Of a stretch of DNA of 32,000 nt, positions 3,475 to 28,401 are shown in pieces; the stretch's first letter is position 1; every line of letters starts with the position of its first letter. Position numbers and translations under genes: made by a program. The notes under the pieces are model-generated. The model did not search any database. It saw only the letters and a list, made by a program, of their open reading frames with translations, and was not told where the DNA came from. Source of the DNA: Geobacter sulfurreducens PCA (lineage in GTDB: Bacteria; Desulfobacterota; Desulfuromonadia; Geobacterales; Geobacteraceae); assembly GCF_000007985.2 (NCBI RefSeq), contig NC_002939.5:2700001-2732000 (forward strand), in the 5' to 3' direction.

Positions 3475-5319
3475 ATGCACAGAGACATTCGCCTCCACGG
3501 CCAGATAGACGAACGGATCGAGTACTACGCCATCGTGGCGGGAGACGACTCGCACCAGCGCTACTTCTTCAACGCCGCGGAGGGGCCGGGGAGAGAGCTT
3601 CGCTTCTTTGCGCCCGGCAACGAATTCGTCCTGGGCCCGGGGGGCATCAGGCACGAGGGGAACGGCGGCTCCTTCTGCGAGTACATGTTCGGCGTGGACC
3701 AGCCGGTGCCGGACCTGGCCAAGGGCGACGTCATCAACCGGCTCGTCATGTACGGCGCCCGCATGGAGGAGGAGAGCGGCAACCTCATCTTCGACGACCG
3801 CACCGGCGGCCAGCTCGGCTTCGAAAAGATGTTTTTCGAAGGCAACGCCGTGGTCAACTACTTCTTCTTCATCTCCTCGGCCCGGGTGACCGGTCCCCTG
3901 AGACGGCAGCAGGAATCCATCGTCAGGACCATCGGCAAGACCCTCAAGCGCTCCGCCGCCGTAGGGGAGCAGGACGAAAACGCCCTCATCGCCGAGGTGC
4001 TGGCCCTCCTGAGCGATCCCACTGCCCTGTTCTTCCTCTTCAAGCTGATCAACGTCCACCACCGGGAGTACCACGACACCTTCCGGCGGCTCTACTTCAG
4101 GAACAAGAAGATCGCCGACGACGACTTCGCCATGCTCACCGCCGTTGCCGCGCGTCACGACATCGACCGCTACCAGCAGGAGCGGATCAGGATCGATGTC
4201 ATGTACAAGCACCCGGCCAACCGCCGGATCGTGGACGAGTACAAAAACATCCTGATCGGCTGCCACCGCAAGGGGGAGATCAGCCGGCTCGAAAACGCCC
4301 GGCTCACGCGGCTCAAGACCCTGTCGGTCCGCAACAAGATCCCGGGCGCGCTCTTCTACACCCTCGACGAAGTCCTGAAAAACGACAAGAAACTGGTGGC
4401 GCCCGAGGAGCAGGACTATCTCTCCGATATCCGCCAGATTCTCGAAGGAATCTTCCTGACCGAACGGGACATCGAGAGTTCCATCGACCGCGAGGACATG
4501 GCCCGGCTCCTCTTCGCCAAGAAGAAGGCCGCCGAAAACCGTGACCACGCCTTCGAGGAACTACTGCTGGACGCCAGCCGACTCTGCGACGAAAAGATGC
4601 GCGACGGCGCCGAACTGGCCATCATCGAGGGCTTTTCCTACCTGATCACCTTTTTCGACCGTTACGACACCACCTCCCAGGCCGTCAACCAGCTGGCCTT
4701 CATGGAAAACGTCCGGATCACCGAAGAGATGATCCGCAGCCTGCTGGGCAACAAGACCGCCTTCGACTCGCTTCGGGACGGCCTGTTCGACGAGCTCTTC
4801 ATCGCAGGACTCCTGGAAAACAAGTACCTGGGACGCTACGGCCGGATGAAGATCACCAACCTGCGGCGCGGCCTGGCGGAAATCGAGCTGAACCGGCTCA
4901 CGGTGGCCGCCCTGATGGAGCAGCTGCTGACCATCGACCGGGAGGAGCGCCTGGCGATCCTGCTCCTGTCCCACGTGCGGGACCGCATCCGGAACTTCTA
5001 CTCGAAGTACACCACCAAGGCCGATCAGCAGGCCCTCAGGCGCGAGGTGAACGAAGAGCTGATCGCCAAGAAGCTCGTCGACGGTAACGTCCCGGACCGG
5101 CTTTTCGACGAAACCATCCTCACCATCCAGAAGGAAGCGGTCTACCTCCACGGCCTCCTCCCCCGCATCATTGCCGACCGGGACATTGCCCTGCGCGAAG
5201 ACTTCCTGGAAAACTCGGGCCTCGACCGCTTCTACGTTGAGGAACTGGAGCGGGAGTACTTCGAGCTGAACGAGCTGGATCTGGAGGAGCTGTACCAGAT
5301 CAGGAAGGGTTTGAGTTAG
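3475..5319 (+). CDS. conserved hypothetical protein, 614 aa, with a mixed N-terminal domain and a long helical C-terminal region
   Basis: Long uninterrupted ORF with host-like GC. I recognise no catalytic motif. The antisense ORFs overlapping it are low-complexity shadows. Confidence 0.8.
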   Translation: MHRDIRLHGQIDERIEYYAIVAGDDSHQRYFFNAAEGPGRELRFFAPGNEFVLGPGGIRHEGNGGSFCEYMFGVDQPVPDLAKGDVINRLVMYGARMEEESGNLIFDDRTGGQLGFEKMFFEGNAVVNYFFFISSARVTGPLRRQQESIVRTIGKTLKRSAAVGEQDENALIAEVLALLSDPTALFFLFKLINVHHREYHDTFRRLYFRNKKIADDDFAMLTAVAARHDIDRYQQERIRIDVMYKHPANRRIVDEYKNILIGCHRKGEISRLENARLTRLKTLSVRNKIPGALFYTLDEVLKNDKKLVAPEEQDYLSDIRQILEGIFLTERDIESSIDREDMARLLFAKKKAAENRDHAFEELLLDASRLCDEKMRDGAELAIIEGFSYLITFFDRYDTTSQAVNQLAFMENVRITEEMIRSLLGNKTAFDSLRDGLFDELFIAGLLENKYLGRYGRMKITNLRRGLAEIELNRLTVAALMEQLLTIDREERLAILLLSHVRDRIRNFYSKYTTKADQQALRREVNEELIAKKLVDGNVPDRLFDETILTIQKEAVYLHGLLPRIIADRDIALREDFLENSGLDRFYVEELEREYFELNELDLEELYQIRKGLS

Positions 5320-5334
5320 GCCGCCCACGCGCAA

Positions 5335-6711
5335 TCAGAAATCCAGCGGGCTTCGCGCCTCCTTCACGGTCCTGACCGGAACACAATGGGTATAAATCAT
5401 TGTCGTTTTCAGGCTGGCATGCCCCAGCTTGGTCTGGATGGTGCGGATATCGTAATTGGCCTGCAGCAGGTGCGTCGCGTAGGAGTGGCGGAAGGTATGG
5501 GCCGTAACCCGCTTGGGGATCTTTGCCTTGCGGACGGCCAGGTAGAGCGCCTTCTGCAAGAGTGACTCATGGACATGCGCCCGCCTGAGCTGCCCGTTCG
5601 CCTCCACCGGCGTCAGATCCTTTTGCGGAAAGAACCATTGATGAATCAGCTCCTTCGGCGCTTTGGGGTATTTTTTCTCCATAGCATCATCGAGGAACAC
5701 ACCGTCATACCCCTGCTCCAGATCCTTTTCATGCAACTCCTTCACCCGCCGCATCTGCCGCTGCAAATCATTCAGGATAGACTCCGGCAGCGGCAGAGTC
5801 CGATCCTTCTTCCCCTTGCCGTGGACCGTAAGGATACCCGCATCGAAGTTGAAATCCCGAACCCGCAGCTGCAGACACTCGAACAGCCGCAGCCCGCAGC
5901 CGAACAGGAGTTTCACGATCAGGCCATGGGGGTGATAGAGGTGGGCAAGGATAGCGTCGATCTCTGCACGGGACAGCACCACCGGCACATAGAGCGACTT
6001 CTTGGCGCGCGGCACGTCCCTCAGTTCGCCGAAATCCCGCTTCAGGGCATGGCGGAACAGAAACAGCAGCGAGTTGAACGCCTGATTTTGCGTAGAGGCG
6101 GCCACATTACACTTCACCGCCAGCCAGGTTAGATACTCTTTCACATCCGCGGTTGTCAGCTCCACTGGAGGCTTGTTCTTCAAAAAGCGCTGGAATTGAC
6201 GGCACCACTTGGCGTAGGTCTGCAATGTTTTCCTGGAATAATGCCTGACCTTGATTTCCGCTGCCAGCTTCGCCATAACCTCATCCCATTCAGGAGAGTC
6301 GGATTTTTCCTGGTAGCCAGCGACGTTATAGAAAGAGTGCCGCGGGGGAACAGGAGGAGAGTCGGGCGGCACGTCAGCCGAACCTTCCGACTGCTGCGCC
6401 ATCGGTTGTGCGGACGGGGCTGAGGACACCGGCAACGTGTCACTGGCGCCACCCTTCAGCATGACGAAATACAAAGATACCGCCTGACTGGCCTGCTGCC
6501 GCTTCTGCTCAGACTGTCCTTTTTGCTGCAACTTGTTCAGGAAGAGATCGATTCTCTCCGGCTCGCTTCCCGTAACATGATACTTTTCACAGAAATCGAG
6601 AAAGTAGCGCAGCCATTTCAGATAGTCGGCAAAATCAGCGACCGCGATTCCGCAGTTGTTGTAAAAAGAACGGTATTGCCTGAACAGATGGTGCGGCAGT
6701 AAAATCATCAC
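5335..6711 (-). CDS. intI: integron integrase (tyrosine recombinase IntI) with an approximately 145-aa N-terminal extension
   Basis: LQLRVRDFNFDAGILTVHGKGKKDRTLPLPESI; IntI-specific insertion AMEKKYPKAPKELIHQWFFPQKDL..RRAHVHESLLQKA; catalytic AHTFRHSYATHLL..DIRTIQTKLGHASLKTTMIYTH; C-terminal ARSPLDF. Good SD (GAGGA) 6 nt before ATG 6711. An IntI1-length protein would start at Met146 (6276). Confidence 0.93.
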   Translation of the reverse strand: MMILLPHHLFRQYRSFYNNCGIAVADFADYLKWLRYFLDFCEKYHVTGSEPERIDLFLNKLQQKGQSEQKRQQASQAVSLYFVMLKGGASDTLPVSSAPSAQPMAQQSEGSADVPPDSPPVPPRHSFYNVAGYQEKSDSPEWDEVMAKLAAEIKVRHYSRKTLQTYAKWCRQFQRFLKNKPPVELTTADVKEYLTWLAVKCNVAASTQNQAFNSLLFLFRHALKRDFGELRDVPRAKKSLYVPVVLSRAEIDAILAHLYHPHGLIVKLLFGCGLRLFECLQLRVRDFNFDAGILTVHGKGKKDRTLPLPESILNDLQRQMRRVKELHEKDLEQGYDGVFLDDAMEKKYPKAPKELIHQWFFPQKDLTPVEANGQLRRAHVHESLLQKALYLAVRKAKIPKRVTAHTFRHSYATHLLQANYDIRTIQTKLGHASLKTTMIYTHCVPVRTVKEARSPLDF

Positions 6712-6788
6712 AATTCCTCAGAATTTTTAATTTAAGTTCTATCAAAGAATGCGTATAGTTGGCGACATATTTTCGATGCGGGTGACCA

Positions 6789-7139
6789 ATGAAAACACGC
6801 TTGACCCTGAAACCCGGGCAGCACGGCACAAAATCTCTGATAAAGAAATACGGCGACGCACTGGTATGCGTAAGATTTCGTTATGATCCGGAAACGAAGC
6901 AACGCCTGAAGACCGTAGAACTCATTGTCGAGCGGAGTGACTGGACCCCGCCGCCACCCCGCTTCACAAACGACACGCTTGTCCCGTTACGGGTAAAAGC
7001 CACCGACGTGGCAATCCGCAATCAGGTAAAAGCAGTCGGTGGACGTTGGAACCCGGAAAAAAAGTTATGGTTTGTCACCTACGGCAACATAGTCGGTACT
7101 CCGCTGGAAAAGCATATAGATGTAGATGGATTCGGATAA
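6789..7139 (+). CDS. small hypothetical protein between intI and the first recombination point; C-terminal GGRWNPEKKLWFV motif (DUF5710-like)
   Basis: 116-aa ORF with GGGTGA 5 nt upstream of the ATG. The C-terminal half resembles the x-R-W-D/N-x3-K-x-W-F/Y-V module seen at the termini of plasmid primase/topoisomerase-type proteins (from memory). Its last codons are encoded by the first 16-mer repeat. Confidence 0.6.
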   Translation: MKTRLTLKPGQHGTKSLIKKYGDALVCVRFRYDPETKQRLKTVELIVERSDWTPPPPRFTNDTLVPLRVKATDVAIRNQVKAVGGRWNPEKKLWFVTYGNIVGTPLEKHIDVDGFG

Positions 7140-7237
7140 GGATAACCCTCGACTCCATCTATATCTATATAGGCAAGCCCCATATAGATGTAGATGCTTC
7201 CATCTACATGTACTTGGTTCTATATATTTGTAGATAG
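7113..7237. repeat. array of five alternately oriented copies of a 13-16 bp motif (CATATAGATGTAGATG)
   Basis: Perfect direct copies at 7113-7128 and 7181-7196. Inverted copies are CATCTATATCTATAT (7156-7170, 1 mismatch) and CATCTACATGTAC (7201-7213). A degenerate direct copy TATATATTTGTAGATAG is at 7221-7237. The second pair forms ATGTAGATG-cttc-CATCTACAT. Confidence 0.9.
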
Positions 7238-7240
7238 CAC

Positions 7241-7268
7241 ACCCTAACGGGTGATTTACGAGTTGAAT
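7241..7268 (+). other. candidate attI simple site (CCCTAAC ... G|TTGAAT)
   Basis: GTTGAAT (7262-7268) fits GTTRRRY and is the exact complement of the R'' (ATTCAAC) of the next attC, which marks the start of cassette A. A CCCTAAC L-box-like element lies 15 nt upstream. No attC-like arms precede it. Confidence 0.45.
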
Positions 7269-7291
7269 GATTAAAAACGGAGAAACAAGAA

Positions 7292-7819
7292 ATGAACTGG
7301 AAATCATTTGCCTTCGGGTTTGTTGCTGGAGTGGCTCTCCTTTCTGCCATTAGCCACTGGAGAGCAAGACCGCAAAATGTTATCGCTTCCTGGCCAGATG
7401 ATGACAACAAAAAAGGAATGCAGATGATGGCGCCATGGGTGACAGAGGCGAGAGTAGGAAGGCTTGGCCCTTTCGTTGCGATGGTTCCAAATAAATTTGA
7501 TGCCAGCCCGGAAGCATTACTTCAACCAGTAAAAGCGAAAAGTCCATGGATTTACGTCAAAGGCGAGGAAGTAATGATTCACGACAGCAAGAAAAGGGCA
7601 ATTTCCATCGATTTCAATGCGTCAAACGGAGAATTTAGTTCTTACACCTTTCATCCTGACTTGACCACTGCAACAGGTCAAAGTTTCACGGATAAAAACC
7701 TGACAGGTGTCATGGAAAAATTTGAGCCCCAAGTGAAGAAGAAGTTAACATTCAACCAGGAAGAAGCAGCGGCCTATAAACCGCCGCTGTTCTCCCGGCC
7801 CGTTAGGCAAAAAGAATGA
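7292..7819 (+). CDS. cassette A protein: N-terminally membrane-anchored or secreted, unknown function
   Basis: 175-aa ORF, one hydrophobic segment (WKSFAFGFVAGVALLSAISHW), GGAG upstream. The ORF reads through attC1 and stops 15 nt into the next cassette. Confidence 0.65.
   Translation: MNWKSFAFGFVAGVALLSAISHWRARPQNVIASWPDDDNKKGMQMMAPWVTEARVGRLGPFVAMVPNKFDASPEALLQPVKAKSPWIYVKGEEVMIHDSKKRAISIDFNASNGEFSSYTFHPDLTTATGQSFTDKNLTGVMEKFEPQVKKKLTFNQEEAAAYKPPLFSRPVRQKE
7750..7808 (+). other. attC site 1 (59 bp)
   Basis: R'' ATTCAAC, L''/L' palindrome AGCAGCGGC / GCCGCTGT, R' GTTAGGC. The 3' arm is nearly identical to that of attC2. Confidence 0.8.
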
Positions 7820-7842
7820 ATGACATGACTCAGGGAGGTGAC

Positions 7843-8598
7843 ATGAAAGATCGAGATTACACTGCTCCGGGTATTGTTATGGGAGTCATTTTTTATATTA
7901 CTATTTTGAGTTCAGCTGCACCGACACTTAAAATGATTGACATAGTTGCTCCAATTGCAACTTTACTTGCTGCATTAGTTGGTGCTGAAGCCGCATTTAG
8001 ATTGCAAAGGGAAAAAACTGAAAAAACAGAAATGACCCGAAGAAAGAGCGCTGCAAACCAAACAGTTCACTTAATATCAAACATCTACTCAAATTTAAGA
8101 CAATACAGAAGAGAAATTATTGAACCTACAGAAACTTTGCCTGTACCGTGGTTAGGGTTAAGAGGGTTGTTGGCCTATCACTATGAAGTGAATTTGCCGC
8201 GCGAAGGATTGCTATTCATGTTCGAGGGGGAAGGTGATGGTGCACAAATATATGCAGAACTAATAATGGAAGAGCAACGATATAATTTAGCCATAGGAAT
8301 GATAAAGCAATTACATGAAACCATTAAAAACAAACTTCAACCTGAACTGGAACGCCTAGGTTATTACCCCGGCAATGTTGACATACAACAGTTATTGTCT
8401 CAACTCCCACCTAGCTTAATAATTGATCTCAACAGCCTTACACATGAAACATACAAAATAGTTCGTGAAAATATTGAATCCATACAAGAAGTGTACGAAA
8501 AGTTTCAACAAAGTATGAAGTCACAATTTCCCAACATAAAAGTGGCACGCTTGATTTTTGATGACGGAATGCCTAACCAGGCAGAAACACCGGCCTAA
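7843..8598 (+). CDS. cassette B protein: two TM helices plus an approximately 190-aa helical soluble domain, unknown function
   Basis: ORF in frame from 7816. The best start is ATG 7843, 4 nt after GGGAGG (7833-7838). TM segments GIVMGVIFYITILSSAAP and IVAPIATLLAALVGAEAAF. The stop TAA lies inside attC2. Confidence 0.7.
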   Translation: MKDRDYTAPGIVMGVIFYITILSSAAPTLKMIDIVAPIATLLAALVGAEAAFRLQREKTEKTEMTRRKSAANQTVHLISNIYSNLRQYRREIIEPTETLPVPWLGLRGLLAYHYEVNLPREGLLFMFEGEGDGAQIYAELIMEEQRYNLAIGMIKQLHETIKNKLQPELERLGYYPGNVDIQQLLSQLPPSLIIDLNSLTHETYKIVRENIESIQEVYEKFQQSMKSQFPNIKVARLIFDDGMPNQAETPA

Positions 8599-8628
8599 AA
8601 CCGCCGGTGTTCTCCCGAACCGTTAGGC
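8571..8628 (+). other. attC site 2 (58 bp)
   Basis: R'' GCCTAAC, L''/L' ACACCGGC / GCCGGTGT, R' GTTAGGC. R'' is the exact complement of the G|TTAGGC that opens this cassette at 7802. Confidence 0.85.
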
Positions 8629-8635
8629 AATTAAT

Positions 8636-9025
8636 ATGAATTTTGCGGAAATCATTGTAGTCGCCTTGGCGATCATCCTCATCCTCGGTCTGATTGCGAT
8701 CATACTAGGACCAATGTTCGGTTGGCGAATCGCCGCGAGGAATGAAGAGTTTATTCCATTTTCCTCCAGAATTGAGGCACGAGAAAAAATTCGTGTCGCA
8801 CTAATGGAACAAGGATGGGAGATTGAGCACGACGGCCCGGATAGAATGAAAGCTCGAACGAAAATAAGCTGGCGGTCATGGGGGGAAATCATAAAGATCG
8901 AGTTTGCCGATGGAGGCGCAAAAGTGAGTTCTGAATGCTCACTACCGACGCAAGCTATCGATTACGGGAAGAATAAGATCAACGTCCAAAAACTTGTGGA
9001 TGCGCTGACGAAAAGAAATGCCTAA
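8636..9025 (+). CDS. cassette C protein: single N-terminal TM plus a small soluble domain, unknown function
   Basis: 129-aa ORF with TM IIVVALAIILILGLIAIILGPMFGW. The stop TAA overlaps the R'' (GCCTAA) of the interrupted attC3. Weak SD. Confidence 0.65.
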   Translation: MNFAEIIVVALAIILILGLIAIILGPMFGWRIAARNEEFIPFSSRIEAREKIRVALMEQGWEIEHDGPDRMKARTKISWRSWGEIIKIEFADGGAKVSSECSLPTQAIDYGKNKINVQKLVDALTKRNA

Positions 9026-10934
9026 TCGGGTAGCCGGGGGTTTTACCCCCCCAGCCCCCACACCACCCGGCATGCGGGTCCGCACCGGGCGGTTCGACGA
9101 AGTTACCGGGCCGTGGCCGGGTAATGGATCTTCACCCACAGTTCTTTGACAGATACAAGTCCTTGATCCTTCAGCCACTGGTTGGTCATACCGTGCTGGG
9201 CGGCAAGCCTGCGGGACATGGCCCACGGACCGTTGCGGTTCAGCCCTGCTCTGATGGATGTGCCAAGCTGTACACCCAGTTTGAGCAGGTTCCGAATCTT
9301 GGTGCGGCACCACCGCCACTGCTTCCAGTAGCACAGCCGCACCCGCCGCCGTATCCAGCCGTCGATCTCCGGGATGTCACGGTAGGCTTCGGCAATGCCG
9401 AAGTACCCCATCCAGCCGCGGAGGTAGGTCGACAGCTTGTTCAGTCGGTACTCCATGGAGACGAACCAACTCCTGCCGGTGTACTTCCTGACCCGGCGCC
9501 GGAACTCCTTGTACGCCTGGTCAGACCAGAGGATTTTGGTTCCCTTGAAGACAAAGCCAAGAAAGCTCAAGTCGCCGCTTCTGGCGACTTTGCTCTTGTC
9601 TTCGTTGACCGTGAGCTTGAGTTTGTTCGTCAGATACTTCCTGACGCTCCCCATGACCCGCTCGCCGGCACGCTCGCTCTTCACCAGAATGACGAAATCA
9701 TCGGCGTAACGGACGAACTTGTGGCCACGGCTCTCAAGCTCCTTGTCCAGGTGGTCGAGGAGGATGTTGGCGAGAAGCGGGGAAAGCGGACCCCCTTGGG
9801 GTACGCCCATGCGGGTCTTTTCCAGCCGCCCGTCAACCTCCACCCCGGCTCTGAGATACCTGCCGATCAGGGTGAGAACCCGCTTGTCGCGGACCCTCCT
9901 CCCCACCATTGTCATGAGGAGGTCGTGATTGACCGTGTCGAAGAACTTGGCAAGGTCGATGTCCACGGCAATGCGGTAGCCCTGCCGCAGATACTCCCGC
10001 AGCTGCCGCACGGCATTGTGTGCCGAGCGGCCGGGGCGGAACCCGAAACTCGATGCGGAGAATTCCGGATCGAAGATCGGCGTGAGCACCTGGGCTGTTG
10101 CCTGTTGGATCAGCCGGTCAAGGACGGTGGGAATCCCCAGCGGGCGGGTGCCGCCCGTTGGTTTGGGTATTTCCACTCGAAGGACCGGCTGTGGTTGGTA
10201 GGTACCTGTTGCAAGCGATGCACGGATATCGCCCCAGAGGGGCCGGAACCGTTCGGGGAACGCGTCGATGGTAACACCATCGACGCCAGGTGCGCCCTTG
10301 TTGGCCCGCACCCGTTTCCACGCCAGGTCCATGTTCTCTGTGGCAAGTATCCGCTCCAGTAGGTGCTCTTCCGGAGTTGGCCGGTCAATGACGCGCTCCA
10401 CGGGCATTCCCCCGGTCGGGTTCGGTATGTCGTGAAAGCTCATTGGGGCTTACCTCCTCTTCATCGTTCGGCCCTTCGGCGGGGTAAGGCTTCCCGGCTG
10501 TCTGTGACGACGCCGGGCTTGTTTCCAGGTGCCGGATCGCTGGCGGCAACGTCCGCGCCTACTATGGCTTCTGCTGACTCCTGCCCCATCACGGCAGCTG
10601 TTACCAGAGGCCGCGCCAGCAAACATCGCTAGCATGTGGAGCAGGTCTCCCCGGATAAGAACGTGAACTGTGGCTACACAACCGCAGCATTTACCTTGGC
10701 ATCCTGAATCCGTGGGACTTCGTCATGTTGTGCTGACTTGCCCGGACACCCCGGCCTTGTATGCTGTTTCTGTTCGTCGGCTCATAGCTTTGCGCTCGGG
10801 CTTCCTTCAGACCCCTCCTCGCGGAGGCGCCCTTGCCGTCGGCTAGTACTTTGGTACCCTGTCTCGCGACAGTGCTGGATTCTACGTACAGGGGACTTGC
10901 ACCCCATTAGTTCACGCCCATGCCGGGCGTACAC
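9025..10934 (-). mobile_element. bacterial class C (attC-associated type) group II intron, full length (ends uncertain by about 3 nt)
   Basis: The minus strand starts GTGTACGCCCGGCATGGGCGTGAAC (GUGYG-type 5' end, c10934). Domain V GAACCGCCCGGTGCGGACCCGCATGCCGGGTGGT has a CGC triad. Domain VI GGGGCTGGGGG-GGTAAAA-CCCCCGGCT(A)CCC has a bulged A 7 nt before ...GAT. The RT ORF sits in domain IV. The 5' exon ends 9 nt after the attC hairpin stem (3 nt if the outer CGCCAC/GTGGCG pairing is counted). Confidence 0.85.
9103..10443 (-). CDS. group II intron reverse transcriptase/maturase (no endonuclease domain)
   Basis: 446 aa. RT motifs RPLGIPTVLDRLIQQA, FGFRPGRSAHNA, VDIDLAKFFDTVNH, GVPQGGPLSPLLANI, FVRYADDFVIL. 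Maturase X domain LGF..RGWMGYF. Short C-terminus typical of class C. Confidence 0.95.
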   Translation of the reverse strand: MSFHDIPNPTGGMPVERVIDRPTPEEHLLERILATENMDLAWKRVRANKGAPGVDGVTIDAFPERFRPLWGDIRASLATGTYQPQPVLRVEIPKPTGGTRPLGIPTVLDRLIQQATAQVLTPIFDPEFSASSFGFRPGRSAHNAVRQLREYLRQGYRIAVDIDLAKFFDTVNHDLLMTMVGRRVRDKRVLTLIGRYLRAGVEVDGRLEKTRMGVPQGGPLSPLLANILLDHLDKELESRGHKFVRYADDFVILVKSERAGERVMGSVRKYLTNKLKLTVNEDKSKVARSGDLSFLGFVFKGTKILWSDQAYKEFRRRVRKYTGRSWFVSMEYRLNKLSTYLRGWMGYFGIAEAYRDIPEIDGWIRRRVRLCYWKQWRWCRTKIRNLLKLGVQLGTSIRAGLNRNGPWAMSRRLAAQHGMTNQWLKDQGLVSVKELWVKIHYPATAR

Positions 10935-10985
10935 TAGCGCCACGACCGGCCTAGAAACCCGCCGGTCAGGCTTGTGGCGTTGGAA
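10935..10985 (+). other. attC site 3, right-hand part (left part is GCCTAAT at 9020-9026, separated by the intron)
   Basis: TAGCGCCAC-GACCGGC-ctagaaacc-CGCCGGTC-aggcttgtggc-GTTGGAA. The spacing of L''/L' and R' is identical to attC1/attC2 (9 nt and 11 nt spacers). The R' core is degenerate (GTTGGAA). Confidence 0.65.
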
Positions 10986-10990
10986 GAAAG

Positions 10991-11392
10991 CTAAACCGTC
11001 CAATCAATGATATTGAGGGAAGGGACCCGTAAAAACTCGCGGGTGTTATTAGTGACCAGAGGGATTCCTAACGATACAGCGTGAGCGGCAATCAACATAT
11101 CCATGGAGCCAATGGGCGTACCAGCTTTTTCAAGAGCTGCTCGAATATCTCCATAGACATGAGCCGCCGATTCATCATAAGAAACCAATTCCAAAGGAAT
11201 GATGAATTCGTCGAGGGCCTTGGCGTTTTTCTCCATATGGGTGCTCTTCGCAACTCCGTAGCGCAATTCCGAGAGAGTTATGGATGAAATGCCAATATCG
11301 CCAACCTGGTACTCTAAGAAACGCTCAAGTACAGCAACCGGCTGCTGCTTTATGATGTAAATGCAGATATTGGTGTCGAGAAGCAATTTCAT
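10991..11392 (-). CDS. vapC: PIN-domain toxin VapC
   Basis: MKLLLDTNICIYII..., acidic PIN residues, ...LVTNNTREF. ATGA overlap with vapB. The stop is 6 nt from the attC3 R' core. Confidence 0.92.
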   Translation of the reverse strand: MKLLLDTNICIYIIKQQPVAVLERFLEYQVGDIGISSITLSELRYGVAKSTHMEKNAKALDEFIIPLELVSYDESAAHVYGDIRAALEKAGTPIGSMDMLIAAHAVSLGIPLVTNNTREFLRVPSLNIIDWTV

Positions 11393-11619
11393 CAGAAGCC
11401 ATCCCGCTTGTCCAGTTCAGGTTGTATGCGCTCGGACATGAAATCGCGGGAGAATTTCTTGAGACTGCCGAAGAGGGAATTCCACGAATCGCTCCGAGGG
11501 ATCAGTTGAACGACGTTGCCGCTTTTCTTGATGAATACTTCGCTGTCTTCGAAGCGAAATTCTTTGGGAAGCCTTACTGCCTGACTTTGTCCATTTTGAA
11601 AAATCTTTGCAGTTTTCAT
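11392..11619 (-). CDS. vapB: AbrB/SpoVT-type antitoxin VapB
   Basis: MKTAKIFQNGQSQAVRLPKEFRF. GGAGG 6 nt upstream of ATG 11619. The track start at 11634 adds 5 unsupported residues. Confidence 0.9.
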   Translation of the reverse strand: MKTAKIFQNGQSQAVRLPKEFRFEDSEVFIKKSGNVVQLIPRSDSWNSLFGSLKKFSRDFMSERIQPELDKRDGF

Positions 11620-11633
11620 TTCTGACCTCCACA

Positions 11634-11795
11634 TTAATATATATTTGAAGTATATATTTCAGGTTTTAGGTTGGCAAGTAAAATTTCAACAATGATGAGA
11701 GAACGAACTCCCAACATGGCCACAAAGATCAAAACAACTTTTATGACTGTAATCTCACGGATTCAGGTAGGGGGAAGACCATTTTTTGTCGCCAT
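11634..11795 (-). pseudogene. higA-like (Xre HTH antitoxin) remnant with an in-frame stop and C-terminal truncation
   Basis: AAGGAG RBS overlapping the higB-like stop, then ATG 11795: MATKNGLPPT-TGA-IREITVIKVVLIFVAMLGVRSLIIVEIL... The stretches xREI(T/L) and LGV......EI resemble HigA N-terminus/HTH by eye. It ends after about 53 codons at the vapB promoter region. Confidence 0.35.
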
Positions 11796-11806
11796 AATAT
11801 TTCTCC

Positions 11807-12055
11807 TTAATGGTAGTCGGTTATTTCAACATAACTCGCTTCGCCGTCAATAAAACTGAAACATATTCGCCACTTCAGGAGTTCCGGGGACATCCATGGA
11901 AATATACAGACCCAAAGGCGTTGGAGCAAAGAACCCATGACGCTAGAAGAGCGATAAAGACTCGCAAGATTGAACGCCGCTTGGCTTGCAGGAGAGAAGA
12001 TTGACGCTCTCAGGTTTCGGTACAATTCAACCTTATCAAATATTTCGTGGAGAAC
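11807..12055 (-). pseudogene. higB-like (plasmid-maintenance killer family) toxin remnant
   Basis: C-terminus KWRICFSFIDGEASYVEITDYH matches the family signature WRIcF...g.a..VeivDYH. An N-terminal IFDK..ELY is present. There is no start codon at the expected N-terminus and the middle is about 8 residues short. The 117-aa track ORF begins in unrelated GC-rich sequence. Confidence 0.45.
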
Positions 12056-12137
12056 TTGACGAGTACGTGCTTTCCTCCCCAGAGGAACTGCAGCAGGTCC
12101 GCAAAGGGCTGAGCTGAGTAGAGAACGCCCGCCTCCC

Positions 12138-12202: not shown

Positions 12203-15013
12203 ATGGAGTCCCTTTCGTCGCACCTCCCCCTTTTGCGGGATCAAATCGTTGCCTACGGCAAGGAAAACCTTGAGGAAATGCTCCACCTGCTGGCCGAGGG
12301 GGTGCGTCTCGTCTCCGGCCAGGACCGGATCCGCATCTACCTGGAAGACCTGACCCGCGGCGTCCTTACCTGTGTCCACGCCTCGGGCCCCCTGGCCGAT
12401 GAGATCCGCGAGGTGAGCTTCCCCATCATCTCCCGTGAGGCGTCGGTTTCCAGCGTCTTTGTCTCCCAGTACGCCACCGAATTCCACTACGAGCCGGAGG
12501 GAAAACACACCTTCGACCGGGGCTTTGCCGAACGCTTCGCCATCGGCCACAGCTACATCCTGCCGGTGGTGAGCCAGGGGAAATCCATCGGCGTGGTCTG
12601 CGTCGACCGCTTCCGGCCGGGGGAGATCCTGCGCGGCAAGGGGAAGGCGCTGCTGGGCGAGTTCGTCACCTCCGTGGCCGACCGGCTCGACGTCGCCCGC
12701 ATCTACCACCAGCAGCTCCTGCTCGCCCGCCGGGTCGAGGAGTACAAGAAACGGGAAGCTGCCTCGTTCATGGTGCAGTCGGCCGTGCGCCTCATCGACC
12801 GGCTGGTCCTCGCCTCGGTGCTGGTGCCCGTGCCCGGTCCGGAAGGCTCGTCGCGCCTCGCCATCCTGGCCAGCCACTCGGAAGACCCCAGCCTGAAAAA
12901 GCAGTATGACGAGCAGGGAGAGATCGCTCTCCAGAGGGGTACCTCCCTCATCTCCCGGTTCCTGGACGACAACGCGGTCATCGCCGACGAACGGCTTCTG
13001 CGCCCGCTGTTCATTCCGGACCTGACCCAGCAGGAGCTCCAGAAAAAGGCCCTCACCGAGAAGATGGCGCTGCGCTCCCTCTACGTGGTGCCCCGCTACG
13101 AGCCGTCCAGCCGCAAGGTCATCTGCCTGGTCAACTATTTCACCAAAGACCTGTACCGCTTCTCCGACTTCGAGATGGGCCTGCTCCAGACCCATGCGGA
13201 GATGGCGGAGCGGATGGTGAACGAGATCGGCGGCGAACACTTGGAAATCCGCGTCCTGGCCGAGATCACCGAACTCCTCCAGGAGCGCAACGAAGAGCTT
13301 TCCCCGTTCCTCACCCGGGTCCTGTCAATGGCCACGGAGCTGATCGGCGCCGATACCGGCAGCATCGCCATCGTCCAGGAGCGTGACGGCGAAAAATGGC
13401 TTGTGGTGGAGGACGAAGAAGGGACCATCGTCGGGGCCAAGAACAAGTCGTGGCTCAAGAAGTACATCCCCCCCTTCAGAATCGGCGGCCACGAGCTCCC
13501 CGCCGAGGAGCGGAGCCTCACCGGCTACGTGGCCTGGTCCAAGCAGCCGAAGATCATCGCCCACGTGGCGGACGAGCAGGGGGGCGAGGGGTTCCACCGC
13601 TCCATGCACGAGCTGATCAAGAGCGAGATCGCGGTCCCCATCGTCTGCGACGACGAGGTGATCGCCGTGGTCTGCCTCAACTCGCTCAAGCCCGCCTGGT
13701 TCACGGAAGAGCACAAGCGGATCCTGCAGATCATCGACCGGCTCACCTCCCGGCACATCTCCGACGTCCAGCGGATCGAGCGGCTCGAGGGGGAGGTGAC
13801 CCGGCTCAAGACTGACGTGGCCTACAAAGACCCCCAGATCTCCTCCTACCGGCTCGGCAACATCATCGGCAACAGCCGCAAAGCCCAGGAGATCGTTGAT
13901 TTCATCAACACCGTGTCGGTGCCCCTCTTCAACCGGATCACCCTCTGGAGCAAGAACGTCCTCCAGGAGGCGACCATCGGCCTCCCCTCCATCCTCGTCC
14001 AGGGGCAGACCGGCGCCGGCAAGGAGTTCTTCTTCAACAACCTCTACAACAAGCTGAACGAGATGTACCGGGAGAAGCTCAACCCCGCTGGCCAGCTCCC
14101 CGTGAAAAAGACCAACATCGCGGCCTACAGCGGTGACCTGACCTACTCGGAACTCTTCGGCCACAAGAAGGGGGCCTTCACCGGCGCCTACAGCGACCGC
14201 AAGGGCATCCTGGAGGATGCCGCCGGCGGGATCGTCTTCCTGGACGAGATCGGCGACGCCGACCCCAAGACCCAGGTGCAGCTGCTCCGGTTCCTGGACA
14301 ACGGCGGGTTTGTGCGGCTGGGGGAAAACCAGGACCGTTTCAGCCGGGTGCTCCTGGTGGCCGCCACCAACAAGGATCTGGCGGAAGAGATCCGCAAGGG
14401 GAACTTCCGGGAAGACCTCTACCACCGGCTGTCGGAGCTGGCGGTGCAGGTGCCGTCCCTGAACGAGCGGCGCGAGGACATCCCCGACCTGGCCACCCAC
14501 TTCCTGGGCAAGCTCTACCGCACCTACCGGGGGGACGAGTCCAAGGACGCCGCCCCCACCCTGGCGGAGGAGGCCAAGCGGCTCCTGATGAACCACCACT
14601 ACCACGGCAACATCAGGGAACTGCGGAGCATCCTGCTGCGGGCGCTCTTCTTCCGCAAGGGCACGGTGCTCACCGCCGACGACGTCCGGCGCGCCCTGGC
14701 CGCGGGCATGCGCGAGTTCGCCCCTGCCACCGCCACCCAGGAGCTGAACGACCGGATGGTGACGGAAATCCTGGACAAGATCGCCAATGGCGAAACCTTC
14801 TGGGAAGCGGTCTACGAGCCCTACTCCCGCAACGCCATCCCCCGCGACGCCGTCCGGCTCGTCATCGAGCGGAGCCGCGACGCGGCGGGCCGGAGCATGC
14901 CCCAGGTGGCCCGCTACCTCAAGGCCGTGGGCGACGATGTGGAAGAAAACGACGAGGAGCGGAAGCGGTTCTTCAAGTTCAAGAATTTCCTCTATAAGAC
15001 CGTGAAGATCTGA
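12203..15013 (+). CDS. sigma54-dependent transcriptional activator (EBP) with a large multi-GAF-like N-terminal sensor region
   Basis: 936 aa. AAA+ sigma54-interaction domain: Walker A GQTGAGKE, YSELFGHKKGAFTGA (GAFTGA loop), GGIVFLDEIGD (Walker B), RVLLVAATNKDL, FREDLYHRL, PSLNERREDIPDL. About 550 aa of GAF-like repeats precede it. The C-terminal HTH is atypical. Confidence 0.9.
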   Translation: MESLSSHLPLLRDQIVAYGKENLEEMLHLLAEGVRLVSGQDRIRIYLEDLTRGVLTCVHASGPLADEIREVSFPIISREASVSSVFVSQYATEFHYEPEGKHTFDRGFAERFAIGHSYILPVVSQGKSIGVVCVDRFRPGEILRGKGKALLGEFVTSVADRLDVARIYHQQLLLARRVEEYKKREAASFMVQSAVRLIDRLVLASVLVPVPGPEGSSRLAILASHSEDPSLKKQYDEQGEIALQRGTSLISRFLDDNAVIADERLLRPLFIPDLTQQELQKKALTEKMALRSLYVVPRYEPSSRKVICLVNYFTKDLYRFSDFEMGLLQTHAEMAERMVNEIGGEHLEIRVLAEITELLQERNEELSPFLTRVLSMATELIGADTGSIAIVQERDGEKWLVVEDEEGTIVGAKNKSWLKKYIPPFRIGGHELPAEERSLTGYVAWSKQPKIIAHVADEQGGEGFHRSMHELIKSEIAVPIVCDDEVIAVVCLNSLKPAWFTEEHKRILQIIDRLTSRHISDVQRIERLEGEVTRLKTDVAYKDPQISSYRLGNIIGNSRKAQEIVDFINTVSVPLFNRITLWSKNVLQEATIGLPSILVQGQTGAGKEFFFNNLYNKLNEMYREKLNPAGQLPVKKTNIAAYSGDLTYSELFGHKKGAFTGAYSDRKGILEDAAGGIVFLDEIGDADPKTQVQLLRFLDNGGFVRLGENQDRFSRVLLVAATNKDLAEEIRKGNFREDLYHRLSELAVQVPSLNERREDIPDLATHFLGKLYRTYRGDESKDAAPTLAEEAKRLLMNHHYHGNIRELRSILLRALFFRKGTVLTADDVRRALAAGMREFAPATATQELNDRMVTEILDKIANGETFWEAVYEPYSRNAIPRDAVRLVIERSRDAAGRSMPQVARYLKAVGDDVEENDEERKRFFKFKNFLYKTVKI

Positions 15014-20261: not shown

Positions 20262-22040
20262 ATGAACGTGTACGAATCGCTGCAAACAGTTCTCTTGTTT
20301 GTCGTTCTCCTGGCCATGGTCAAGCCCCTGGGCACCTTCATGGCCCGGGTATTCCAGGGGGAGCGGACGATCCTCTCACCCGTCCTCGCGCCCGCCGAGA
20401 GCCTCCTCTACGGGGTTTGCGGAGTGAACAGTGAAGAGGAGATGGACTGGAAGCGCTATGCCCGGGCCATGGTCCTCTTCAATCTGGTCATTTTCGCGAC
20501 ACTTTTCGCCATGCTGATGCTGCAGCACCTGTTGCCGCTCAATCCGCAGAAGTTTCCGGCCTTCAGCTGGCAACTGGCCCTCAACACCGCCGTCAGTTTC
20601 ACCACGAATACCAACTGGCAGGCCTATGCGGGTGAACAGGCGGCCAGCTACTTCACCCAGATGGTTGGGCTGACGGTGCACAACTTCGTCTCCGCCGCCA
20701 CCGGCATTGCCGTGGCCATCGCAGTTATTCGCGGCTTCGCGCGGCGCACGACCTCCGCGCTGGGCAACTTCTGGGTCGACCTGACCCGCGCGACGCTCTA
20801 CATCCTGGTACCGATCTCCCTGATCGCCGCCCTCGTCCTCGTTTCCCAGGGGGTGATCCAGAACTTCAGCGCCTACCAGGCGGTGTCCCTGGTGCAGCCG
20901 GTCACCTACGACACGCCGAAGCGTGACGGCACGGGAAGCCCGGTCAAGGACCCCACGGGAAATCCGGTCACCGAACGTGTGACCGCCAAGGAGGTCACGA
21001 TCCCCATGGGGCCGGTCGCTTCCCAGGAAGCGATCAAGGAACTGGGGACCAACGGCGGCGGCTTCTTCAACGCCAACTCGGCCCATCCGTTCGAGAACCC
21101 CACTCCCCTTTCCAACATGCTGGAGATCCTGCTCATCCTCCTCATCCCGTTCTCCCTCACCTACACCTTCGGCGCCATGGTGGGGAATACCCGCCAGGGC
21201 TGGACCCTCCTCGGGGTCATGCTCCTGATCCTGCTGGCCTCCTTTGCGGTGCTTCAGGGTGTTGAATCGGGCGGCAATCCGCTGGTGACAAAGCTCGGCG
21301 TTCACGGGGCCAACATGGAAGGAAAGGATACCCGCTTCGGCCTGGCCGGAAGCAGCCTTTTCACGGTCGCAACCACCGGCACATCCTGCGGCGCGGTGAA
21401 CACTATGCACGACTCCCTCACTCCGATCGGCGGCATGATCCCCATGAGCCTGATGCTCCTGGGTGAACTGGTTCCCGGCGGGGTCGGCTCCGGCCTCTAC
21501 ACCATGCTCGCCTTCGCCGTGATCGCAGTATTCGTCTCGGGCCTGATGATCGGGCGCACGCCGGAATACCTGGGGAAAAAAATCGAGGTGCGGGAGATGT
21601 GGATGTCGGTCGTCACGGTTTTGGCTGCCGGCGTCATGGTGCTGATACTTTCGGGAATCGCCATGATCTCTCCGTCCGCCGTGGCCGCCATGGCCAATCC
21701 AGGAGCCCACGGCCTCTCCGAGGTCCTCTACGCCTTCGCCTCCATGGCCAACAACAACGGGAGCGCCTTTGCGGGGCTCTCGGCCAACACGACCTTCTAC
21801 AACATCCTCGGCGCCCTGGCAATGATCGTCGGACGGTTCGCCCCGGCAGTGGCGGTGCTCGCCATGGCCGGCTCCCTGGCGGAGAAGAAATACGTACCGC
21901 CGAGCCTCGGGACCCTGCCGACGGACAAGGTGCCGTTCGCCCTCTGGCTGACCCTGGTCATCCTCATCGTCGGTGCGCTCACCTTTTTCCCGGCGCTGTC
22001 GCTCGGGCCGATCGTGGAGCACCTGACCATGACGATGTAG
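20262..22040 (+). CDS. kdpA: potassium-transporting ATPase subunit A
   Basis: 592-aa polytopic protein with KdpA motifs ([27 protein letters not shown]), followed by kdpB and kdpC. Confidence 0.96.
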
Positions 22041-28208: not shown

Positions 28209-28375
28209 GATGCTTGACCTGCCGGGGGAACGGGGCATACTATGGGGGACATTCATGCAGCCGAGATCCGTTCGCGAGAACGGGTGCGGGGGACCCACTT
28301 CGGGGGCGTATTCCGGCAATGGCGCCGGATAGAGGACTTTCAGCCTCGAGCCCGTCAGCTAACCTCGTAGGCATC
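28209..28375 (+). promoter_or_regulatory. c-di-AMP riboswitch (ydaO/kimA class)
   Basis: Conserved blocks as I recall the motif: GTGCGGGGGACCCA (28285-), GGGGCGTATTCC, AUAGAGGA, and TCGAGCCCGTCAGCTAACCTCGTAGGCATC at the 3' end. P1 GATGC (28209-28213) pairs with GCATC (28371-28375). The 5' limit is uncertain. Lies in the leader of a K+ transporter gene. Confidence 0.78.
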
Positions 28376-28401
28376 TGGAAGGGCACGACAGCGGTTTCAG
28401 G

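Follow-up and report, generated by a model that had tools for sequence, protein, structure and literature searches.

The superintegron of Vibrio cholerae, with about 180 cassettes, is the model of a sedentary chromosomal integron, and antisense toxin-antitoxin cassettes are typical of large chromosomal arrays. In class 1 integrons, attI1 comprises a core simple site ending in GTTRRRY and accessory IntI1-binding direct repeats, DR1 and DR2, upstream of the crossover. In the attC bottom strand, group IIC-attC introns insert by the rule TTGT/T (PMC7923331). Such an intron, G.s.I1 (Ge.s.I1), is known from an integron of Geobacter sulfurreducens PCA (PMC3001079; Leon, Quiroga, Centron and Roy 2010; AE017180), in a paper whose accessible parts have intron promoters as their subject.

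The stretch of DNA analysed here (the window, 32,000 nucleotides) apparently contains this same published locus: there too the intron lies in an integron context with vapC on its 5'-exon side, and comparison revealed no substantive difference. We consider it very likely that the region is a complete, probably functional Geobacter-type integron in the G. sulfurreducens chromosome; it has intI and attI, and the attC sites of its three cassettes are real. A second N-terminal SAM-like domain of IntI, a 116-aa gene and the attI repeats together form what is possibly a new platform kept across Geobacter-type integrons. In the accessible parts of PMC3001079 we found no discussion of the attI repeats, orf116, the IntI N-terminal domain or the insertion signature.

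The integron integrase and its additional N-terminal domain

5335-6711, minus strand: intI, integron integrase, 458 aa (457 aa from the second Met) (TIGR02249, PDB 2A3V, alignment A1)
6457-6711, minus strand: additional SAM-like four-helix domain, the second of IntI, at the N-terminus (residues 1-85) (PF13495, AF2)

In a profile search, the integrase scored 362 bits against TIGR02249, whose cutoff is 265. It aligned with VchIntIA (PDB 2A3V) with E = 2.5e-68, and the alignment was almost free of gaps over residues about 322-385, where alignments with XerA and XerC break. These results bear out the earlier note, which had recognised an IntI with the IntI-specific insertion. The catalytic residues R275, K299/K301, H405, R408, H431 and Y440 fall in invariant columns of alignment A1.

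Unlike VchIntIA, the protein carries an extra N-terminal region of about 140 residues. PF13495 matched residues 29-82 with 27.6 bits, and the AF2 model predicts helices over residues 7-85 with pLDDT of 75-91. This domain is kept in all aligned homologs; a variable, disordered linker comes after it (residues 90-133). No LexA box was found near intI.

Recombination cores and attC sites

7750-7808, minus strand: attC1, 59 nt, the bottom strand being the minus strand (R1 37.9 bits, E = 3e-7)
8571-8628, minus strand: attC2, 58 nt (R1 49.1 bits, E = 7e-10)

Four recombination cores had been described as fitting or nearly fitting GTTRRRY, and all four are in place: GTTGAAT at 7262-7268, GTTAGGC at 7802-7808 and at 8622-8628, and GTTGGAA at 10979-10985, the last base of which misfits the Y. 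Matches to GTTRRRY alone mean little, because about 60 are expected by chance (calculated) in the 64 kb of both strands. A covariance model, R1, was built from 24 attC candidates, all from other genomes. Searching the 32-kb window with R1 gave three matches, 7750-7808, 8571-8628 and 10927-10985, so that each of the three proposed attC sites was recovered (E <= 2.5e-4); the runner-up had E = 0.1. Across the searched loci R1 found 147 sites, 145 of them in 80 related loci and all of these on the intI strand, with the checked positions upstream of intI. In an alignment that is itself fitted to the model, 96% of cells show pairing in the L-box helix, and 315 changes affect both of its sides.

The R'' boxes of attC1 (ATTCAAC at 7750) and attC2 (GCCTAAC at 8571) are complementary to the first six bases of their own cassettes, TTGAAT and TTAGGC respectively. 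Folding of the bottom strands, proposed earlier as a check, gave z = -2.7 for attC1 and z = -6.6 for attC2, the latter showing an extrahelical T in the 3' arm. The attC bottom (minus) strands would adopt the usual hairpin of R-box, unpaired spacer and L-box, with the extrahelical base on the 3' arm. Such hairpins, like the insertion in IntI, are shared with the V. cholerae superintegron. As first noticed, attC1 and attC2 have almost identical 3' arms, and over their whole length they share 81% identity. The attCs had been called homogeneous, but attC3 is only 56-66% identical to both and belongs to another attC type, common to other Geobacteraceae arrays. In contrast to the uniform repeat of V. 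cholerae, the attCs of this array are of at least two types.

An Xer-like recombinase lying beside ordinary genes, with terminator hairpins and chance GTTRRRY-like words, could in principle imitate such a locus, given the number of chance matches and the lack of any family for the cassette ORFs. We rejected this explanation, whose probability is negligible: the integrase passed the IntI model (TIGR02249) while Xer models stayed far under their cutoffs, the alignment with VchIntIA holds, a covariance model built independently of the window matches these three sites alone, R'' pairs with the cassette start in three cassettes out of three, and attI is kept in relatives.

A group II intron interrupts attC3

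9020-9024, minus strand: R'' part of attC3, GCCTA, on the cassette side of the intron (intron removal)
9025-10932, minus strand: group IIC-attC intron G.s.I1, 1908 nt, antisense to the cassettes (RF00029, RF02001, RF01998)
9103-10443, minus strand: intron-encoded reverse transcriptase/maturase, 446 aa (TIGR04416, 418 bits; RVT_1 and GIIM)
10933-10985, minus strand: main part of attC3 (L'', loop, L' and R' GTTGGAA) (R1 match 10927-10985)

The third site was found by R1 with 25.7 bits (E = 2.5e-4) despite its interruption by a 1.9-kb group IIC-attC intron, on which the earlier note was silent. Rfam models matched the intron at 9025-9094 (RF00029) and 10660-10828 (RF02001), and also with RF01998. 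Its ends were placed with the help of PMC3001079, the accessible parts of which report an experimentally mapped promoter, P1out (TTGCCG-N16-TACCCT), at intron positions 73-100, and describe a weak outward promoter inside G.s.I1. The published P1out sequence matches 10833-10860 of the window, and intron position 1 is therefore at 10932. Logan contig breaks fall at 9053 and 10934. Excision of 9025-10932 yields GCCTAAC/TAGCGCCACGACCGGCC..., which matches the uninterrupted attCs of two related loci (L029 and L080). The R'' of attC3 had been read as GCCTAAT at 9020; this word is GCCTA followed by the last two intron bases, and the true R'' is therefore GCCTAAC. The proposed complementarity of R'' with the cassette start thus stands for all three cassettes, with this one sequence corrected.

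Like S.ma.I2 of Serratia marcescens, G.s.I1 combines a class C ribozyme with a reverse transcriptase/maturase, is antisense to the cassettes, and immediately follows the hairpin of the attC bottom strand, at a site resembling TTGT/T. The site is TAGT/T here, whereas an intron fragment copy in strain L094 lies at TTGT. The 5' end departs from the consensus GUGYG, being GUACG under the published numbering, with up to 2 nt of ambiguity. The target hairpin of G.s.I1 is the folded attC bottom strand; inserted there, the intron should stop both read-through transcription and attC3 folding.

Cassettes and the distal end of the array

7263-7802, plus strand: cassette 1 (65% homolog inside the array of a related locus, L017)
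7803-8622, plus strand: cassette 2, predicted membrane protein with no family (ORF and profile analysis)
8623-10979, plus strand: cassette 3, including the intron-interrupted attC3 (ORF 8636-9025, 129 aa, no family)
10980-11722, plus strand: vapBC cassette, its genes antisense to the array (NF047863, NF047862)
10991-11392, minus strand: vapC
11392-11634, minus strand: vapB
11723-12033, plus strand: decayed cassette remnant (similarity to L070 and L080)

On the minus strand, intI points away from attI, after which come three promoterless plus-strand cassettes, each ending in an attC of 58-59 nt. The ORF of cassette 1 (7292-7819, 175 aa, no family) runs through attC1 and stops within cassette 2. 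That of cassette 2 spans 7816-8598 (260 aa) or, in the public assembly record, 7843-8598 (251 aa). The array had been counted as three cassettes. Three do carry a real attC, but a vapBC cassette (10980 to about 11722) and a fragment come after them, and the integron span, previously ended at 10985, should be extended to about 12117. The attC of the vapBC cassette is truncated after TCCCAACATGGCCA (11709-11722). In strain L094 a vapBC cassette 90.5% identical to it, with the same G/TT start, has an intact attC at 20506-20568, and the same cassette, with its own intact attC and attCs on both sides, also occurs in L018. Positions 11770-11872 of the remnant share about 83-85% identity with DNA inside cassettes of L070 and L080, and no attC was detectable in 11723-12033. 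The truncated attC, with only a cassette fragment beyond it, indicates that the distal end of the array is decaying.

orf116 and the attI region

6789-7139, plus strand: orf116, a conserved gene of 116 aa that lies between attI and intI and diverges from the latter (50 of 68 related loci)
7113-7236, both orientations: 16-nt near-palindromic repeat (CATATAGATGTAGATG), four to five copies (motif search)
7242-7268, plus strand: attI core CCCTAAC-N13-GTTGAAT, crossover G7262/T7263 (related loci, L011 junction)

In 50 of the 68 related loci with room for it, orf116 lies 78-229 nt upstream of intI. More than 770 homologs were found, the best 120 of which are 66-96% identical to the query. The AF2 model of the protein is confident, yet it gave no PDB fold match. 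The repeat matched four times at <=3 mismatches (0.05 expected) and nowhere else in the window; its first copy is inside the 3' end of orf116, and related loci have lineage-specific versions at fixed offsets. At the core, ...CTAAC..ACGA/GTT is kept in related loci and similarity stops after GTT. No Pc promoter could be demonstrated above chance.

As in attI1 of class 1 integrons, a core simple site is preceded by extra repeats upstream of the crossover. Unlike DR1 and DR2, these are near-palindromes of 16-18 nt unrelated to the core sequence, present in 4-6 copies at fixed offsets of about 20-25 or about 45 nt, the first inside a conserved gene. A conserved gene and phased repeats between intI and attI also set the locus apart from V. 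cholerae.

Cassette movement

According to the established integron model, IntI would recombine folded bottom-strand attC with attI, inserting circular cassettes beside attI, and attC x attC recombination would excise them. From 7262 onward, a metagenome contig, L011, matches the window at 100% identity and has the same three cassettes. Upstream of 7262 it carries another cassette and attC (CCCTAAC...G/TTGAAT), joined exactly at G/TT, in agreement with the footprint of cassette recombination that had been proposed for these cores. This short contig could in principle be chimeric, which is unlikely because the join falls exactly at G/TT after a proper attC. The presence of at least two extra cassettes upstream of otherwise identical DNA implies a recent insertion on the attI side. 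Cassette content, which was to be compared among strains, differs at the same site in a further strain of G. sulfurreducens; between its attCs, strain AP017912 carries a Hachiman cassette together with the vapBC cassette described above.

The array was identical in 10 of 11 Logan contigs inspected, L011 being the exception, which indicates that it is stable in laboratory lineages. In the Logan collection 93 blocks index the intron reverse transcriptase and 147 the cassette-1 protein. This constancy, the split attC3, the truncated vapBC attC with its neighbouring fragment and the truncated intI of G. pickeringii would suit an inactive relic, in which intI and the attCs are still recognisable while recombination has ceased and the array is frozen and decaying. 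We consider such a state unlikely, since the intI ORF is full-length and keeps every catalytic residue, attC1 and attC2 score well and are undamaged, and L011 carries extra cassettes.

A probable insertion at the end of the TIGR04442 gene

5236-5319, plus strand: left, attL-like copy of the 3' end of the TIGR04442/CHP04442 gene (gene 3475-5319) (alignment A4)
12034-12117, plus strand: right, attR-like copy of the same 3' end (alignment A4)
12203-15013: sigma-54 regulator gene, beyond the right copy

The segment from about 5320 to 12100 (about 6.8 kb) has a GC content of roughly 50%, against 63-66% in its flanks. At this locus, G. anodireducens and G. pickeringii lack the segment; there, about 85 nt separate the TIGR04442 gene from the sigma-54 regulator gene downstream. 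Alignments with the sister species and with another strain lose homology at 5315-5321. The last ~18 nt of the left copy (AGGAAGGGTTTGAGTTAG) are unlike the ancestral sequence; the right copy is diverged in its upstream part, retains about 17 ancestral nt at its end and runs into the ancestral intergenic region. These features, seen at a single locus, suggest that the whole unit entered the TIGR04442 gene at its 3' end, between the attL- and attR-like copies. The unit is specific to G. sulfurreducens and variable in content among strains.

As in integrative genomic islands aimed at a gene's 3' end, such as SGI1 at trmE, imperfect direct repeats of the target gene end bound the segment, sequence carried by the element restores the gene, and a tyrosine recombinase gene is found close to one junction, here at 15 nt. 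Unlike in those islands, the sole recombinase of the unit is the integron integrase: it contains no other island integrase, and no excisionase or transfer genes were recognised in it.

The integron had been called sedentary. Its chromosomal location, with no transposase or plasmid genes nearby, agrees with that label, as do the identity of attC1 and attC2, attC types common within Geobacteraceae, and an antisense toxin-antitoxin cassette like those of V. cholerae. A classical sedentary chromosomal integron, ancient, vertically inherited, fixed in place and with a homogeneous species-specific attC family, is nevertheless quite improbable here. Unlike that of V. cholerae, the locus is not kept between sister species and the array has only 3-4 cassettes; another G. 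sulfurreducens strain has other content at the site, attC3 is divergent, duplicated gene-end copies flank the unit, and the same flanking genes were found in none of 80 related intI loci. The unit is better seen as a small integron of the chromosome, housed in a variable island, than as a large sedentary integron of the classical kind. Among the genomes sampled, this integron was not seen at the TIGR04442 locus outside G. sulfurreducens; related integrons occupy other loci in other species.

An integron integrase with an additional N-terminal domain

The earlier note read this stretch as carrying a chromosomal integron, and that reading was borne out by an integron integrase model, an independent attC model, an attI site and the footprint of cassette exchange. 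The integron itself is already known, having been published as the G. sulfurreducens integron that carries the intron G.s.I1. Novelty could lie only in the attI/IntI/orf116 architecture and in the insertion signature at its borders. Its elements, in window positions, are listed below.

Features of the integron and its borders
5236-5319 and 12034-12117, the 3' end of the TIGR04442 gene in two diverged copies of the same orientation, flanking the integron (alignment A4)
5335-6711, minus strand, intI
6277-6711, minus strand, extra N-terminal region of IntI, residues 1-145 (homolog alignment, domain model and AlphaFold2 model, see below)
6789-7139, plus strand, orf116
7113-7236, phased near-palindromic repeats of 16-18 nt in both orientations, also found upstream of intI in the comparison loci L014-L088
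7242-7268, plus strand, attI core with crossover between G7262 and T7263
7750-7808, attC1, bottom strand is the minus strand (attC covariance model R1, 38 bits, E = 3e-7)
8571-8628, attC2, bottom strand is the minus strand (R1, 49 bits, E = 7e-10)
9025-10932, minus strand, group IIC-attC intron G.s.I1
10927-10985, attC3 match, bottom strand is the minus strand (R1, 26 bits, E = 2.5e-4)
10991-11634, minus strand, vapBC pair, cassette (NF047863 and NF047862)
11709-11722, residual vapBC attC, first 14 nt only (TCCCAACATGGCCA), from comparison with L094 (G. sulfurreducens strain AP017912)

The intI product matched TIGR02249 with 362 bits (cutoff 265), and all Xer models scored far under their own cutoffs. 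Its alignment with VchIntIA (PDB 2A3V, E = 2.5e-68) was near-gapless over residues ~322-385, confirming the IntI-specific insertion that the earlier note had recognized; the alignments of XerA and XerC to IntI split in two pieces at this insertion. The catalytic residues R, K, H, R, H and Y were invariant in an alignment with 12 homologs. The ORF encodes 458 aa (457 aa in the public gene call). Close homologs are all 430-490 aa long and have in common an extra N-terminal region, VchIntIA being ~320 aa. The SAM-like domain model matched a second time in this region, at residues 29-82 (27.6 bits), and in the AlphaFold2 prediction residues 7-85 form a four-helix domain (pLDDT 75-91) with a disordered linker after it. 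Both the SAM-like four-helix domain and the linker are kept in all close homologs. By its model score and its insertion, the product is a tyrosine recombinase of the IntI clade with the IntI-specific additional domain. A search with the pattern GGTTN2CN4GN3ACC, which we take to be the Geobacter LexA box, gave no site near intI, and its total matches were below chance.

The attC sites

The four recombination cores (7262, 7802, 8622 and 10979) and the R'' boxes lie at the positions proposed in the earlier note. As GTTRRRY words are frequent by chance, the sites were tested independently with a covariance model (R1), seeded by 24 attC candidates taken entirely from other genomes, on the array side of related intI loci; the density of harvested candidates upstream of intI was about 30-fold that found downstream. 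The model encodes the R-box and L-box pairs. When the whole window was scanned with filters off, exactly three matches appeared, corresponding to the three proposed sites, all with the minus strand as bottom strand; the next best hit had E = 0.1. At E <= 0.01 the model retrieved 147 sites, 145 of them within 80 related loci. All 145 were on the intI strand, and the positions that were checked lay upstream of intI. In the alignment fitted to R1, 96% of the cells of the L-box helix were paired, with 315 double-sided changes, and the unfitted MAFFT alignment already showed compensatory changes in seven of seven pairs.

Folding of the attC2 bottom strand (8571-8628), which the earlier note had suggested as a check, gave z = -6.6 and produced an R box, an unpaired spacer, an L box and an extrahelical T on the 3' arm. 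The sites are imperfect palindromes with R'', L'', L' and R' boxes whose bottom strand forms a hairpin with extrahelical bases, as attC sites do. They had been described as homogeneous; this fits attC1 and attC2 (81% identity) better than attC3, which is 56% identical to attC1 and 66% to attC2. Early scans combining a regular expression with folding energy were too strict, missing attC1 and also attC3 (the latter because its R' ends in A), and were kept for the seed harvest only. The minimum free energy fold of the attC3 arm (CGCCAC/GTGGCG) was dropped in favour of the family-wide register GACCGGC/GCCGGTC plus GCC/GGC.

Cassette boundaries and cassette movement

The attI core (...CTAAC-N13-ACGA/GTT, the slash marking the crossover) is kept in related loci, whose likeness to the window ends directly after GTT; the site thus lies beside intI with its crossover at G/TT. 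As the earlier note had observed, the first six bases of each cassette are complementary to the R'' box of its own attC: six of six positions pair in cassettes 1, 2 and 3 (the third after subtraction of the intron). For the vapBC cassette the count was 5/6 in the window and 6/6 in AP017912. Such complementarity is the footprint of circular intermediates.

Over 7262-9051 the window has a 100% identical counterpart in L011, a contig from a metagenome. Upstream of 7262 L011 has no attI; this position is occupied by another complete cassette with its own attC (CCCTAAC...G/TTGAAT), preceded further upstream by the end of another attC. The junction falls exactly at the G/TT of the proposed attI core, as the integron model predicts for new cassettes inserted at attI, an event that would have occurred in a close relative. 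On the comparative evidence of L011 and strain AP017912, IntI-driven insertion and excision of cassettes may have shaped this array.

Scanning for a Pc promoter returned one sigma-70-like site (6676-6705, plus strand), inside intI and not above chance. The ORFs of cassettes 1 to 3 had no match in Pfam, NCBIfam, PHROGs or PADLOC. The cassette-1 ORF (7292-7819) has no stop codon in its own cassette and reads through attC1; the TGA that ends it lies 11 nt inside cassette 2, which makes its C-terminus dependent on the downstream neighbour.

The third attC is split by a group II intron

The R'' box of cassette 3 had been read as GCCTAAT. This word turned out to be composite: only GCCTA belongs to the attC, and the remaining bases are the 3' end of a group II intron. 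This intron encodes an RT/maturase (TIGR04416, 418 bits) and contains the Rfam intron domains D1-D4 and D5-D6 (RF02001, 132 bits; RF01998 and RF00029 over the gathering score), the D5-D6 match ending at 9025; it thus combines group II ribozyme domains with an RT/maturase. According to PMC3001079, an outward promoter of G.s.I1, TTGCCG-N16-TACCCT, was mapped by 5'-RACE to intron positions 73-100. We located this motif at window positions 10833-10860, which places intron position 1 at 10932. Removal of 9025-10932 in silico restored GCCTAAC-TAGCGCCACGACCGGCC...GTTGGAA, a 58-nt attC with the expected R'' box that closely resembles the uninterrupted attCs of the comparison loci L029 and L080.

On the bottom strand the junction reads ...GCGCTAGT, intron, TAGGC. 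The intron runs antisense to the cassettes and interrupts the attC bottom strand past the hairpin, at TAGT/T. This insertion fits the TTGT/T rule described for group IIC-attC introns (PMC7923331). PMC3001079 lists the intron as integron-associated, with vapC as the gene on its 5'-exon side, and on this basis the locus has already been described. Many short-read assemblies break at 9053 and 10934 (contig ends of the Logan contigs L002-L012), a pattern to be expected of an intron present, whole or in part, more than once in the genome; some Logan contigs cross the intron 3' junction unbroken.

The distal array contains a vapBC cassette and a cassette remnant

The array runs on past 10985, where the earlier note had placed its end, and its count of three cassettes has to be extended accordingly: there are three intact cassettes, one with a broken attC and one fragment. 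The fourth cassette carries a PIN-domain toxin gene with an adjacent AbrB/MazE-type antitoxin gene, a type II VapBC pair (NF047863, 176 bits, cutoff 140; NF047862, 106 bits, cutoff 100). In AP017912 (L094) the vapBC module is 90.5% identical, begins at the same G/TT and has its own attC (L094 20506-20568); in the related locus L018 it likewise lies between attCs. R1 detected no intact attC after vapBC in the window at E up to 10. Further on, 11770-11872 resembles cassette-internal DNA of two other arrays. The truncated vapBC attC and this cassette fragment indicate that the distal end of the array is decaying.

The integron lies in a putative insertion at a gene end

G. pickeringii and the sister species G. 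anodireducens have no integron at this locus: there, ~85 nt separate the end of the TIGR04442 gene from the sigma-54 regulator gene downstream. In the window the regulator gene starts at 12203, and the intervening ~6.8 kb have a GC content of ~50% against 63-66% in the flanks, the drop extending over 6000-12000. The left of the two TIGR04442 3'-end copies is ancestral save for its last ~18 nt, and the right copy is diverged save for its last ~17 nt, running into ancestral DNA (A4). Reciprocal ancestral and foreign halves of this kind are the pattern of site-specific insertion into a gene end, and the region would accordingly resemble an integrative genomic island in having flanking repeats from the 3' end of its target gene with a crossover signature. 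Homologous replacement was dropped as the main origin of the island as it leaves unexplained the duplicated gene end with its reciprocal halves. The only recombinase within the island is IntI, whose gene has its stop codon 15 nt from the left junction.

The strain comparison proposed in the earlier note revealed other content at the same locus of AP017912 (L094 16523-20568), the vapBC cassette being common to both strains. The left junction is the same as in the window and is followed by a large gene with Big domains. A Hachiman cassette of ~3.1 kb (HamA and the DEAD-box helicase HamB) lies between two attCs, and another attC contains, at a TTGT site, a fragment of G.s.I1 (82 nt, from its 5' end). 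The 10 kb examined after the TIGR04442 gene contained no intI. The genes flanking the window integron were found at none of 80 related intI loci. At another chromosomal locus of G. pickeringii (L099, CP009788, 9396-10351), an orf116 of 93% identity lies beside a truncated intI remnant of 174 aa, the decayed form of an integron of this type.

The term sedentary applies only in that the integron is chromosomal: the record is a 3.83-Mb chromosome, and no transposition or conjugation genes lie between the flanking chromosomal genes, so that no linkage of the mobile-integron kind was found. CP078092.1 (3.83 Mb) and many Logan contigs encode identical copies of the intron RT and the cassette proteins, and G. 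sulfurreducens entries match the flanking TIGR04442 protein with 99-100% identity. The integron is absent at this locus from G. anodireducens and G. pickeringii, remodelled in AP017912 and bordered by attL/attR-like copies; it does not occupy the same locus in all strains and related species, as vertical inheritance would have it. Nor does the window hold a large array of tens of cassettes; among relatives, the loci L027, L018 and L043 each pack at least 10 attCs into 10 kb. GC skew on the plus strand is negative in the flanks; the attC bottom strands would then lie on the template of the lagging strand, to our knowledge not the orientation typical of large sedentary arrays.

The locus is of value as a small, clean case whose junctions are all readable: it displays cassette gain on the attI side in a wild relative, an attC split by an intron whose intact form can be rebuilt from relatives, a toxin-antitoxin cassette losing its attC at the decaying end of an array and, in another strain, a phage-defence (Hachiman) cassette at the same locus.

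orf116 and phased repeats at attI

Between intI and attI, orf116 occurs in 50 of the 68 related loci with room for it. More than 770 homologs were found, the best 120 listed being 66-96% identical to the query. Searches of Pfam, NCBIfam, PHROGs and PADLOC gave only a sub-threshold DUF5710 match; its AlphaFold2 model is confident (pLDDT 90), and a Foldseek search of the PDB with this model returned no match below E = 0.7. CATATAGATGTAGATG occurs four to five times, in either orientation, in the 150 nt between orf116 and the attI core and nowhere else in the window; 4 matches were counted where 0.05 were expected. Across related loci the repeat motif varies with lineage, for example GCATCTAATATTAGATGC or TTTATAGTAGTAGAAA, in two to six copies. 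The offsets are kept across lineages (0, ~45, ~70, ~90 and ~110 nt, the first copy lying in the end of orf116), as is the distance of ~146 nt to the attI core. No mention of the second IntI N-terminal domain, of orf116 or of phased attI repeats was found in the searched literature.

We tentatively propose, while holding it rather doubtful, that Geobacter-type integrons form a distinct platform variant linking a second, N-terminal SAM-like DNA-binding domain of IntI on a flexible linker, the highly conserved orf116 and four to six phased near-palindromic attI repeats. The repeats could act as arm-type sites bound by the extra IntI domain, by orf116 or by both, and, once bound, might assemble attI into a higher-order complex or control how cassettes are captured and expressed. 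The attL/attR-like repeats at both borders suggest a bolder extension: such a platform might let the whole integron enter a host gene's 3' end as one unit. If functional, these features would be evidence that an arm-site-like layout is open to the attI sites of integrons, something little explored beyond class 1, and would offer handles on the control of cassette capture by environmental integrons.

Elsewhere in the window, two riboswitches were found on the plus strand, a SAM riboswitch at 113-215 (RF00162, 78 bits) and a c-di-AMP riboswitch at 28249-28388 (RF00379, 77 bits).
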